A DNA stretch of 49,183 bases, taken from positions 1 through 49,183 of the forward strand of contig MNGN01000043.1 of the NCBI GenBank assembly GCA_001918745.1, read 5' to 3'. The position numbers were made by a program, and so were the translations under genes. The stretch is from Crenarchaeota archaeon 13_1_40CM_3_52_17 (GTDB lineage: Archaea; Thermoproteota; Bathyarchaeia; 40CM-2-53-6). Shown here piece by piece: positions 3,421 through 37,918 of the stretch; position 1 is the first letter of the stretch, and each line of letters opens with the position of its first letter. Under the pieces are notes generated by a model. The model was not told where the DNA came from and ran no database searches. It saw only the letters and a list, made by a program, of their open reading frames with translations.

Positions 3421-4235
3421 CTACTTGAGGTGTTTCCTGCCAATGTAGATCAGATGTTCGGCGGCTCCGTGCAGGCTCGGGTCCTTTCCAAGTCTATAGT
3501 TTAGGTCGACCCAGGAGTCGAACTCATCGCCCTTCAACTCGTTGATTTTTTCTTCGATCATGCTGATGGTGCCTTCACAACCCATGAGGTCTAGGTCTTC
3601 GAACCCGTTTCTTTTCATTGACGGGCTGATTTCTGCAGAATGGGTAAAATACGAATTTGTGAATCCTACACGCGCCTTTGAGGGTATGCCGGTAGCAGAT
3701 GGACCCCACACACCTGTTTCCAAAAGCTCATTTCCCGGCGAAAGCCACTCGGGTTCATCCTTCGCCGACCAGCGCAGAGGAGCATATCGTGTAATGAAGG
3801 TCGCGAATACAAATCCGTTCTTCTCGATGACCCTGTGAGTTTCCTTCACAGCCCAGTCTCGACTGTCTTCTTCGAGGAGATGATACAATGGCCCCACCAA
3901 CAACACAACATCAAAGCTACTGTCTTTGAACCGACGAAGGTCGGTTGCGTTTCCACGTAGACACTCCGTGAAGCTTACACCTTCTTCTTGGGCCTTCTTC
4001 TGAGCGAGCTGAAGGCAACCCTCAGAGAGGTCTAACAAGGTGACTCGATATCCGAGTTTGGCGAGGGCGATAGAATATCGGCCTGGACCCCGCCCACATC
4101 CAATACTTCAGCTGGGAAATGGGGGAGATAGTCTTTGAGTGCTCTCAGCGTAACAGCGAATTCTGTTCTGTGATGGTCAAGTCTATCCCACTCATTCTGA
4201 GAGTTCTTATCATAGAATGCTTGAACCTCGTCCAA
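3421..4235 (-). pseudogene. Class I SAM methyltransferase split by a 1-nt deletion (G-run at 4088-4091)
   Basis: Adding one G restores VLDVGGGPGRYSIALAKLGYRVTLLDLSEG and joins ORFs 4032-4235 and 3421-4038. Possibly an assembly error. Confidence 0.85.
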
Positions 4236-4324
4236 GTTCCCTAAGTCCGCATTACTCTCAGATTAGGGGTTGCATGTACGTCATTACAACGGTTTAACCA
4301 AATGCCCTTCGATAAATGGTTCAT

Positions 4325-4511
4325 ATCTGGACAGTGGACACTCCGGTTCTGCCAAGTCTTCGGTTGTTCTAGGACTTGGCTTGCTCTCATCGACTCTGAG
4401 GATTACCGTCGTCGGCGGGTTCCCCTTCATTGCTTCACTTGAGAGCCCTTGCGCCTCAGAGACGAGTAGTCTCTTCTTGGCAGGGAACGGTCGAACCTCA
4501 ACCGCCCCCTC
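4325..4511 (-). ncRNA. Putative TnpB omegaRNA-like RNA: scaffold ending in CAGAACC plus flank-derived guide GGAGTGTCCACTGTCCAGAT
   Basis: Stems GGGGGCGGT/ACCGTTCCC (loop TGAGGTTCG), GCTCTCA/TGAGAGC and GCCAAGTC/GACTTGGC covary with copy 2. Loop GGTTC is complementary to the terminal GAACC. Confidence 0.6.
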
Positions 4512-4638
4512 ACGCCCGTAGCGTGGTAGCTTGGCCCATTGCCAGGCAAGGATTTTACGGTGGCCAACCAACCAGATATCCCGGTTCACGCCTCTCACGT
4601 GGTCGGAGTCACTCCCCTCATTCCAACATGACAGGCCC
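4345..4638 (-). mobile_element. Non-autonomous TIR-bounded (MITE-like) element carrying a tnpB 3' end/omegaRNA scaffold, copy 1
   Basis: Ends GGTTCTGCCAAGT (4345) and ACATGACAGGCCC (4638) form a 9/13 inverted match. The minus strand reads RGRLRFDRSLP, then after a frameshift EAQGLSSEAMKGNPPTTVILRVDESK, resembling an archaeal TnpB C-terminal tail. Homologous to 37467-37678. Confidence 0.7.
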
Positions 4639-4720
4639 ATACAACGAACGCCTTAGCCTGTGTGGGTCATTCCTCGAACATAACACTTAGAGATGACCGA
4701 AGCTACCACCCACCAGCAAA

Positions 4721-5710
4721 ATGAAGAGCTTGCAAGTGCCCACACTCCCATTGCAGATCAGCGAGTTCAGGGCTGATGACTACGGGAAGTTGGCCCACGT
4801 CTTCGGCTCCATCTTTCCTGATTACGACCGGACACCGGAGGAGTGGCGGTTTGAAGATGAGAGTCTCGACAAGTCAAAGTTTCATTTCAAACGATACTCG
4901 TGTTTTAGCCCGGAGGTCCAAGACGCTGTTGGGTTTGCTCAGTGTCAACATATTCCCTGGATGTATCATCCAAAGAAGCTCTGGGTCGATATCTGGGTCG
5001 ATCCACAGCACCAGAGGAAAGGCATTGGGAATGCACTCTACGAGCGGCTGAGCCAGGACTTCAAAGTTCTTGGCGCCGTCACATCTTGGACGGGCGTGAG
5101 GGAGGACATGCCGTTTCCGATCAAGTTCGCCATGAACCGAGGGTTCCATGAGAAGATGAGGGCTTGGGAATCACGTCTCAACCCGGCCACGGTCAACCTC
5201 TTAGCTTTCCAAAAATATCTGGACAAAGCGTCCCAACATCGAATCCACTTCGTCACATTAGCCGACGAAATGAGTAGCGATCCTGCATGTTATGCCAAAC
5301 TTCATGCTCTGGTTCAAGCCGTCTCAGCAGATATTCCTCGACCTGAACAGTTCACTCCTGTCTCTTTCGAGCAATGGTCAGCTTTCGAGATGAAAAGTCC
5401 CAACTTGGTCCCTCAAGGCTACATGATCGCGAAAGATGGCGACAGGTACGTGGGCATGAGCACTGTGTGGAAGGCTCAGAAGGACCCCAAGGGACTCTAT
5501 CAGGGATTGACGGGAGTCGTACGCGACTATCGGGGACGTGGAATAGCGGTCGCTTTGAAGCTCAAGGTCATCGAGTTCGCAAGGAACAACAAGTACGAGA
5601 AGCTGAAGACCTGGAACGACTCGACCAACGCGCCCATGCTGGGGATTAACGTGAAGCTTGGCTTCAAACGAGAGGTCGGCTGGATAACTTTCGAGAAGAA
5701 CCTGGCATAG
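4721..5710 (+). CDS. Tandem-domain GNAT acetyltransferase
   Basis: Two acetyl-CoA loops (VDPQHQRKGIG and TGVVRDYRGRGIA) and NxxxNAPMLGINVKLGF. Confidence 0.9.
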   Translation: MKSLQVPTLPLQISEFRADDYGKLAHVFGSIFPDYDRTPEEWRFEDESLDKSKFHFKRYSCFSPEVQDAVGFAQCQHIPWMYHPKKLWVDIWVDPQHQRKGIGNALYERLSQDFKVLGAVTSWTGVREDMPFPIKFAMNRGFHEKMRAWESRLNPATVNLLAFQKYLDKASQHRIHFVTLADEMSSDPACYAKLHALVQAVSADIPRPEQFTPVSFEQWSAFEMKSPNLVPQGYMIAKDGDRYVGMSTVWKAQKDPKGLYQGLTGVVRDYRGRGIAVALKLKVIEFARNNKYEKLKTWNDSTNAPMLGINVKLGFKREVGWITFEKNLA

Positions 5711-32102: not shown

Positions 32103-32504
32103 TCAGTGGCCCCAGTTAAGGGGGGCTTGCTGCCTTCCTGTTTGTAGGACCCAGTAGTCGTTCAGTTCCTTGCATAGCCCGTTCTTTGCAAAGTGCAGTA
32201 TGATGCAGCCAGCGAGGGTCACGTCTTCCACTTTCTCTCTCATCGTAGTCCAGTACTCAACAGCGACTCTAGCGCCTTCTACGACTGGCTTTCCAAAACG
32301 AACCTCATACACTTGTTCAACATCCAACGCCCCAAGTGTATAGTCCATGATACTCTTCCTGCCAAGGGTTACCGGCCGGAATGGATGAGAGTGATAGACC
32401 GCGTCCTCCGTGAAGAGTGTCGCAATCGCTTTAGCATCCTTCTTCAACCATGCTTTCGTGTAGTTACGAATCCACCTGTTAACAATCAGTCTGGTGGTGG
32501 GCAT
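32103..32504 (-). CDS. NTF2/SnoaL-like protein
   Basis: YTKAW..KD...IATLFTEDAVY...PF, GLCKELNDYW. Confidence 0.85.
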   Translation of the reverse strand: MPTTRLIVNRWIRNYTKAWLKKDAKAIATLFTEDAVYHSHPFRPVTLGRKSIMDYTLGALDVEQVYEVRFGKPVVEGARVAVEYWTTMREKVEDVTLAGCIILHFAKNGLCKELNDYWVLQTGRQQAPLNWGH

Positions 32505-37446: not shown

Positions 37447-37629
37447 AGAGCTCGAATAATTAATAGGGTTCTGTTAACTCTTCGTCTGATGAGTTAGCTT
37501 CGGGGCATCGACTCGGGGGATTACCGTAGGCGTCGGGTTCCTCTTCATTGCTTCATCTGCTCCGCCTTGCGCCTCAGTTATGGGAGGCCGGGAACGTGCG
37601 AACCTCACCCGTCCCCGCCGGGCCAGGTT
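37447..37629 (-). ncRNA. Putative omegaRNA-like RNA copy 2 with flank-derived guide CTATTAATTATTCGAGCTCT
   Basis: Stems CGGGGACG/CGTTCCCG, GCCTC/GAGGC, CGGAGCA/TGCCCCG and GCTAACTC/GAGTTAAC. Ends in CAGAACC like copy 1. Confidence 0.6.
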
Positions 37630-37678
37630 AATCCTAGGTATAGGTTAGAGAGGCATCCGACAATAAGTTAACAGAGCT
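37467..37678 (-). mobile_element. Non-autonomous TIR-bounded (MITE-like) element carrying a tnpB 3' end/omegaRNA scaffold, copy 2
   Basis: TIRs GGTTCTGTTAACT (37467) and AGTTAACAGAGCT (37678) match at 11/13. Flanks ATTAATAG and GTTAGTAA differ only by transitions. Minus strand reads NLARRGRVRFARSRPPITEAQGGADEAMKRNPTPTVIPRVDAPKLTHQTKS*. Confidence 0.75.
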
Positions 37679-37918
37679 GTTAGTAATAATCGACATTTTT
37701 TTGCATGCAGTTTCCCTGTTGCGGCGGGGCCTATTTTGTAGGATTTGACGATCATCCTCCGCTTTGGCCTCTTTAGGCAAATCCATTCTTGTCATATAGT
37801 CTAGGCCCTCGGAAGGCAGGGAATCGACCTAATGCGCTCGGAGCCAGTCCAAACCCAAATCAATATCACCCAAGAGCGAAGCACATCTAAAGTGACGTGG
37901 GGGGCAAACGGACGAGGA

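Follow-up and report, generated by a model that had tools for sequence, protein, structure and literature searches.

Two related copies in the window

Two stretches on the minus strand of the window (the whole of the DNA analysed, 49,183 nt of contig MNGN01000043.1 from Crenarchaeota archaeon 13_1_40CM_3_52_17) raise the question of which gene or element left them there, and whether their paired segments are those of an RNA. The initial annotation had read them as two copies of a conserved RNA fold, with compensatory base changes and a likely pseudoknot. Our data indicate that both copies are very probably scaffold genes of the guide RNA of TnpB (omegaRNA, or reRNA) that lie in tnpB-less derivatives of mobile elements. 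The interval first described covers the 3′ 170 nt only of a 397-nt element (Table 1).

Copy 1 and copy 2 can be aligned over their full length with 72% identity. The long-range stem that had been described as swapped between them reads GCTCTCA/TGAGAGC in copy 1 and CGGAGCA/TGCCCCG in copy 2, and the swap was borne out, with four pairs changed on both sides and one A.C mismatch. The 3′ hairpin is formed by GCCAAGTC/GACTTGGC in copy 1 and by GCTAACTC/GAGTTAAC in copy 2; the base swaps noted there correspond to two compensated pairs, and copy 2 has an additional C.A mismatch that had been missed. The loop TGAGGTTCG is invariant, as had been stated, and is closed by T-A in copy 1 and by G-C in copy 2. 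The extra hairpin of copy 1, AGAGAC/GTCTCT, is a net 11-nt insertion that puts the sequence out of frame with the tnpB of copy-2-type genes, in agreement with the earlier reading, and the GGTTC in the loop is indeed complementary to the terminal GAACC of both copies. A third TGAGGTTCG at 32299-32307 neither aligns to the copies nor matches the covariance model, and was set aside as unrelated. The folding energy of copy 1 gave a z of -2.97 against shuffles, and that of copy 2 was not better than shuffles (z +0.72). Because copy 2 equals its shuffles, folding energy was left out as evidence.

Distribution of the family

A BLAST search of the copies' own genome (1.78 Mb in 66 contigs) returned 10 related places, among which are five copies of a copy-1-like subfamily A (89-97% identical) and four of a copy-2-like subfamily B (about 90% identical). 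These nine copies were used to build the covariance model R1. In the same genome R1 gave 15 matches with E values up to 5.7e-9, six of which are more divergent. Both window copies are strong matches, with 205.8 bits (E 3e-47) for copy 1 and 173.3 bits (E 2.5e-39) for copy 2, which places the kinship that had been claimed for them beyond chance.

R1 matches were found in 20 of 61 related genomes (own genome included), all of one taxonomic family. Within that family 19 of 36 genomes are R1-positive, and in 24 genomes from nine other families of the same order there was no match. The number of copies in a single relative is as high as 58. The own genome encodes TBP, a protein that was restricted to archaea in a control search. 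The A element is also present in public records of Candidatus Bathyarchaeota and in archaeon genome bins. A search of the window against Rfam 15 gave nothing at the gathering score. Around either copy no Rfam model matched at E up to 10, the HgcC and IS605-orfB motifs included, and on four tnpB-linked loci there was no relevant match at E up to 1. Of the sampled words, half or more were present in DNA runs with a soil-metagenome label, an observation that was not taken as evidence of habitat.

A fold with covariation

An RNA read from the minus strand would fold, from its 5′ side, into the hairpin P1, the variable hairpin P2, P4 enclosed by the long-range stem P3, and the hairpin P5 at the right end. 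The positions of these helices in both copies are listed in Table 1.

Table 1. Elements, scaffolds, helices and presumed guides of the two window copies.
Feature	Position	Strand	Sequence or basis
Copy 1, whole A-type mini element, 397 nt, without tnpB	4345..4741	-	Empty sites and limit of homology among A copies
Copy 1 scaffold (covariance-model match)	4345..4514	-	R1
Copy 1 P1	4483..4509	-	GGGGGCG/CGTTCCC and closing T-A around loop TGAGGTTCG (4500-4492)
Copy 1 P2, specific to family A	4453..4481	-	GCC/GGC around hairpin AGAGAC/GTCTCT (4474-4469 / 4463-4458)
Copy 1 P3	4383..4446	-	4446-4440 with 4389-4383
Copy 1 stem within P3	4437-4435 / 4393-4391	-	TGA/TCG
Copy 1 P4, within P3	4425-4421 / 4402-4398	-	GGGGA/TCCTC
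Copy 1 stem within P3	4418-4416 / 4408-4406	-	CCG/CGG
Copy 1 P5, right-end hairpin	4351..4380	-	GCCAAGTC/GACTTGGC (4380-4373 / 4358-4351)
Copy 1 terminal GAACC	4345..4349	-	Last bases of the element; proposed partner of loop GGTTC (4497-4493)
Copy 1 presumed guide	4325..4344	-	Flank DNA; length inferred from ISDra2
Copy 2, B-type mini element, 212 nt	37467..37678	-	Left end (37678-37630) fused directly to scaffold
Copy 2 scaffold	37467..37621	-	R1
Copy 2 P1	37616-37590	-	Loop 37607-37599
Copy 2 P2	37588-37584 / 37575-37571	-	GCCTC/GAGGC
Copy 2 P3	37564-37558 / 37507-37501	-	
Copy 2 P4	37543-37539 / 37520-37516	-	
Copy 2 P5	37498-37491 / 37480-37473	-	
Copy 2 terminal GAACC	37471-37467	-	
Copy 2 presumed guide	37447..37466	-	Follows TCGGTTA in the empty sites of relatives
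B-type element bounds			GGTTCTGTTAAC…GTTAACAGAACC

The compensatory changes that had been noted between two copies persist in a larger alignment. Among 100 copies (98 distinct), 93.9% of the cells are paired, compared with 31-47% after a shift of the partners by 1-3 columns; fitting of the alignments to the model biases them towards structure, and the slid-partner control corrects partly for the kinship of the mutually related copies. Changes on both sides were found at 27 of 39 pairs, and the 400 cells with double changes compare with 120 in shuffles, none of 500 shuffles reaching the observed values. A set of 43 copies gave a similar picture, with 95.2% of cells paired and both-sided changes at 22 of 39 pairs. 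Among the individual helices in the 100 copies, P1 has both-sided changes at all eight of its pairs with 96.1% of cells paired, P3 occurs in at least 10 distinct, fully paired versions, and P5 has both-sided changes at seven of eight pairs. There are 309 G.U cells and 108 A.C cells, and this excess of G.U fits an RNA of the minus strand.

The extra hairpin of copy 1 is genuine. Its pairs switch among A-U, G-U and G-C in the 46 A copies: pair 12-20 of the A-specific P2 is AT in 28, GT in 9 and GC in 8, and pair 11-21 is GC in 38, GT in 4 and AT in 3.

The proposed pseudoknot

The pseudoknot that had been called likely fared unevenly. Its complementarity stands: across 475 cells from 98 distinct copies, the GGTTC loop and the GAACC tail, both nearly invariant, are paired in 96.4%. 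Covariation does not add to this, with one double change (a compensated GGCTC/GAGCC in copy L098), 11 wobble-preserving changes and 17 broken cells, among which are those of four copies with GGCTC opposite GAACC. The share of pair-preserving changes is about equal to the expectation from transitions alone, and the data are just as compatible with a local three-pair extension of P1 that precludes the pseudoknot. The argument for the pseudoknot is therefore one of conservation and of analogy to ISDra2 and Halobacterium. In the ISDra2 structure, nucleotides -5 to -3 beside the guide are described as pairing with the loop of stem 1 (PMC10097598), and for Halobacterium omegaRNAs a pseudoknot is described that joins a hairpin loop to the transposon end motif (PMC12558985). 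By this analogy, GGUUC in the loop of P1 is most likely paired with the terminal GAACC.

Association with tnpB

On contig C9, the scaffold lies in the tnpB reading frame, among the final ~50 codons of a 407-aa ORF. This ORF matches the Pfam Cas12f1-like_TNB model (1.5e-14) and the structures of ISDra2 TnpB (3.8e-7). A 393-aa paralogue of this TnpB is encoded on C62, and the scaffolds of these two intact genes are about 91% identical to copy 2. Since scaffold and tnpB overlap, part of the conservation of the primary sequence could be at the protein level. The genome contains 13 TNB matches, and at six further loci no more than about 5 nt separate the end of the TNB match from the start of the R1 match. 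Family members are located at the 3′ end of tnpB, on the same strand, on contigs C9, C62, C31, C43, C28, C18 and C16 and in relatives. In the relatives, the fold begins directly after the zinc-ribbon (Cas12f1-like TNB) of an intact tnpB and ends exactly at the element boundary. Homology among the copies stops at GAACC, and the 30 nt that follow are unique in the genome except for one transduced copy. The proposal that omegaRNA scaffolds have outlived tnpB in the window gains from this arrangement, in which the same fold is found at the 3′ end of intact tnpB genes and ends at the element boundary. We consider the identity of the sequences as omegaRNA scaffolds to be well supported and highly likely.

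The ~16-20 nt of flank that follow GAACC would serve as the guide. A search of the genome for matches to the presumed guides, as possible targets in trans, returned none beyond the guides themselves except a flank shared with an A copy on contig C4. At this copy, 71 nt (G000 C4:26185-26255) are identical to the 3′ flank of copy 1 (window 4274-4344). It looks like a 3′ transduction from copy 1, because the flank is ancestral at the window locus, being present in the empty sites of relatives. An intact 422-aa TnpB at G000 C3:2632-3900 has no R1 match and must therefore use another RNA, and it represents a second, unrelated TnpB/omegaRNA type in this genome.

Copy 1 and the tnpB-less family A

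Copy 1 consists of a left inverted end, a decayed 3′-terminal piece of tnpB that accounts for its 5′ half, the omegaRNA scaffold and the right end. Its site is empty in seven relatives, in which the homology ends at window 4742 and resumes with the sequence following 4338, and homology among about 50 A copies ends at 4345. Family A is made up of ~360-400-nt units with both ends common to these copies; in being short, constant at its ends, present in many copies and free of any intact gene, it is a MITE/PATE-like family.

No tnpB was found upstream of 17 A loci in eight genomes or of 30 A loci found by an exact 18-mer (the genome sets overlap), none adjoins either window copy, and no TnpB that carries an A-type scaffold was found among the A loci tested. 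The lineage of copy 1 spread after the loss of tnpB. Among the 58 R1 matches of one relative, G021, the TnpB similarity in the preceding 1.6 kb amounts to less than 80 aa in 42, to 100-170 aa in 5 and to at least 356 aa in 11 (three of the 58 loci are cut by contig ends).

The genes on either side of copy 1 were also inspected. The longest ORF of a GNAT acetyltransferase (4721-5710, plus strand) starts inside the left end of copy 1 (4721-4741), and since homology with element-free relatives stops at 4742, either the first seven codons are element-derived or translation really starts further inside the ORF. Downstream of copy 1, the methyltransferase gene (3421-4235, minus strand) is split into ORFs at 4032-4235 and 3421-4038, which may reflect a frameshift or an assembly error. 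At L081 (G021:C35), an A element occupies the same place beside the GNAT gene (window 4345-4760) and is followed by a different sequence past GAACC; the difference suggests that the right end was rearranged in one lineage or the other.

Copy 2 and the B-type deletions

Copy 2 is a single recent product of internal deletion. Its ends are those of a 1281-bp tnpB element, its first ~49 nt share 85-86% identity with the DNA that precedes two tnpB genes on C9, and its scaffold is 90-92% identical to scaffolds within tnpB on C9, C62 and C31. The left end is absent at the orthologous intergenic site in seven relatives, where the empty site reads …TGTCGGTTA|CTATTAATTATTCG…, so that the right boundary is located exactly after GAACC; by the empty sites alone, the inserted DNA spans 37467-37686. 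The deletion junction is unique among the loci fetched. B-type internal deletions arose several times independently.

Element ends, target duplications and mobility

GGAGTGT is found on both sides of copy 1 (4344-4338 and 4748-4742), as a target duplication. A perfect 7-nt flank repeat was found in 20 of 39 A copies and in 1.2% of mismatched controls, and since the repeat lies at one fixed distance in 18 of these 20 copies, the target duplication is 8 bp long. In B-type elements the left end, the 12-bp GGTTCTGTTAAC, corresponds exactly to the reverse complement of the right end, which in copy 1 (4356-4345) consists of the 3′ strand of P5 together with GAACC. Several B-type elements have flank repeats of 8/8 or 7/8, and the two intact copies of the own genome do not. 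In 23 A copies, some of which are orthologous and non-independent, the motif TTR directly precedes the duplicated 8 bp (T in 18, T in 21 and R in 22 of the 23), and the empty site of copy 2 reads GGTTA|guide. TTR is thus a candidate target-adjacent motif, which in an uninserted site would precede the guide match on its 5′ side.

A Y1 transposase (PF01797) gave no match in the own genome (80% complete) or in any of the 14 searched genomes of the genus (own included), with the reservation that incomplete bins can miss genes; in the family it was found in 3 of 41 genomes, all of another genus. A search of the own genome for serine recombinases was negative, and the Pfam models of the ISL3 and IS1595 transposases had no match in five copy-rich relatives. 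When the inverted-end motifs were paired in the own genome and five relatives, no longer element able to hold a transposase was recovered from bins of a kind that often miss repeats, and the pairs yielded tnpB elements of ~1275-1286 bp and minis of 147-536 bp only. B-type minis within this range of 147-536 bp have different deletion junctions (L071, L104, L125 and L128, and motif pairs in G018 and G021). The IS200/IS605 peel-and-paste elements have asymmetric ends and insert without duplicating the target. An identity with them was considered and rejected, as it is contradicted by the 12-bp inverted ends and the 8-bp duplications, and a Y1 TnpA was not found in the genomes of the genus that were searched.

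A broader model can be put forward tentatively, although as a whole we consider it unlikely. The carriers would be a transposon lineage with inverted ends and 8-bp duplications in which the TnpB-omegaRNA module is the sole conserved cargo; the RNA-only family A would have multiplied and been kept by selection through use in trans by a B-type TnpB, and insertion 8 bp past TTR would couple the choice of site to the motif of the nuclease, in genomes that have so far yielded no transposase. The acceptance of A-type RNA by a B-type protein is conjecture, with copies 1 and 2 only 72% alike. Because TnpB in inverted-repeat, DDE-linked transposons is already in print, the present ends are a lead and do not define a new class.

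Constraint, expression and other readings

With no tnpB beside the window copies, any use of their RNAs must be in trans. TnpB made elsewhere in the genome would load the RNAs of the mini elements, and the loaded TnpB would cut element-free copies of the site beside the TTR motif, so that the mini element would be retained. Whether the RNAs are at present used in this way is, in our estimation, evenly balanced.

The main alternative is that the copies are inert relics, functionless DNA derived from omegaRNA genes in which the fold was simply inherited from tnpB-bearing ancestors. We regard this as rather unlikely for the two copies, although several observations agree with it. Copy 2, as a unique deletion product 90-92% identical to the scaffolds in tnpB, is too young for decay to be expected; many A copies contain mismatches, one P5 pair being paired in only 46% of the 46 copies; changes that break the pseudoknot exist; and the cognate A-type TnpB was not found. 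Against this, family A has kept the form of a single discrete unit, with constant ends, across many different loci in at least eight genomes, and it has compensated pairs of its own. Moreover, the G021 orthologue of copy 1 is identical at 151 of 170 scaffold positions (88.8%), compared with 229 of 310 third codon positions (73.9%) in the neighbouring gene, an estimate of constraint from one orthologous pair that gene conversion between copies could mimic. The concern that selection on the structure might be older than the loss of tnpB is thereby partly answered, through the compensated pairs in 46 tnpB-less A copies and an orthologue more conserved than third positions.

The A element is in addition present in contigs from RNA libraries, which also speaks against inert relics. 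Three studies contributed short, deep metatranscriptome contigs that map to 4342-4653 and cover ~120 nt on the 5′ side of the modelled scaffold; such contigs carry no strand, ends or level, DNA carry-over is possible, and the gaps at 4150-4341 and 4654-4850 are uninformative. The transcript may start well 5′ of P1. Adapter-like letters that abut 4348 and 4636 were considered as RNA ends and discarded, as they come from single contigs in one run. An archaeal promoter TTATGTT (around 4683-4675) was a visual guess only and was dropped.

It is very improbable that the copies are domesticated small RNAs with a host role independent of TnpB, as has been proposed for archaeal sotRNAs and a PATE-derived RNA. 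One sotRNA and one PATE-derived RNA are reported to have improved the growth of Halobacterium when overexpressed (PMC4615843), and a methyltransferase ORF follows copy 1 on the same strand at a distance of 110 nt. The copies, however, occupy unrelated loci with unique flanks, the insertions are lineage-specific, and no neighbouring gene is common to them.

Slightly less probable still is a signal at the level of DNA only, in which the paired segments would be read by a transposase as DNA ends and no RNA would fold. The 3′ strand of P5 and GAACC do form the right inverted end, and the left end opens with the reverse complement GGTTCTGTTAAC, but the inverted end comprises the last 12 nt only, and P1, P3 and P4 lie 60-170 nt inside with equal covariation. 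The roughly threefold excess of G.U over A.C, and the anchoring of the fold at the end of tnpB as in known omegaRNAs, likewise disagree with such a signal.

Least probable of all is that the conservation stems from the C-terminal tail of TnpB (…EAQGG.GEAMKGNP..VI.GVD..KL) and not from an RNA, for although the scaffold lies in the tnpB frame and the GEAM…VD motif is found again in a TnpB with an identity of only about 40%, family A conserves the same nucleotides without a tnpB body and with the frame shifted by the 11-nt insertion, and coding leaves the pairing-preserving double changes unexplained.

Relation to known systems

The omegaRNA reading was compared with four described systems. The omegaRNA of ISDra2 from Deinococcus radiodurans (PMC10097598) likewise overlaps the 3′ end of tnpB, ends at the right end of the transposon and continues into a flank-derived guide. 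The order of its helices is also the same, with a 5′ stem whose loop pairs with the pre-guide bases (a pairing that is only proposed, by analogy, for the present family), a long-range stem around an inner stem, and a last hairpin by the guide. In contrast to ISDra2, whose ordered scaffold is given as 116 nt, the scaffolds described here are 155-170 nt long; there is no detectable sequence similarity between the two, and the present elements differ in the extra hairpin of family A, the inverted ends and target duplications, and the lack of tnpB in the window copies.

Stand-alone omegaRNAs and PATE-like elements (10.1101/2023.03.14.532601; PMC10691335) are described as keeping the ends and the guide-RNA gene without nuclease or transposase, in genomes with effector-bearing copies, as is the case here, and the text of PMC10691335 cites earlier work on their use in trans. 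The bacterial elements of these sources are of the IS200/IS605 type with asymmetric ends, whereas the present ones have an archaeal host, inverted repeats and 8-bp duplications. In addition, the mini lineage A, for which no matching tnpB was found, has diversified, and use in trans is putative here. In the DDE-linked branches of TnpB (PMC10691335), the 3′ end of TnpB is reported near the transposon end, inside inverted terminal repeats, which is the arrangement seen here, and solo TnpB copies of those branches are thought in that work to have moved in trans; the present elements differ in that no DDE transposase was found with the ISL3 and IS1595 models in five genomes.

The window copies add an example to a type of element already known and do not represent a new type of RNA. 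Current views are not overturned, given that stand-alone omegaRNAs and TnpB in inverted-end elements have been published (10.1101/2023.03.14.532601; PMC10691335). What is new is an archaeal (Candidatus Bathyarchaeota) omegaRNA sequence family without an Rfam model, with strong covariation and with a 100-copy alignment and helix map, together with a mini lineage that has diversified without any tnpB found and element ends of a different type. The minis outnumber the tnpB-bearing copies (42 of 58 in G021), which makes the family a natural test bed for the use in trans of guide RNAs from gene-less elements. The family also bears on how tnpB-only elements move without TnpA, as the inverted ends, the 8-bp duplications and TTR point away from peel-and-paste.

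RNAs from the 3′ end of archaeal tnpB have been known since 2015 (PMC4615843). The sotRNAs of IS1341-type tnpB and the PATE-derived RNA (PMC4615843, PMC12558985) resemble the present RNAs in that they come from the 3′ end of tnpB-only elements, and they belong to another phylum and another sequence family. They are described as having a conserved hairpin loop that contains UUCA (in the present family the loop has GGUUCG or GGUUCA), a hairpin at the right end, and a pseudoknot with the transposon end motif, of which the counterpart here is a proposed one. The divergent members L117, L120 and L043 have an added 5′ hairpin and a GAGGTTCA loop in the second hairpin, which fits the description of the Halobacterium omegaRNAs.
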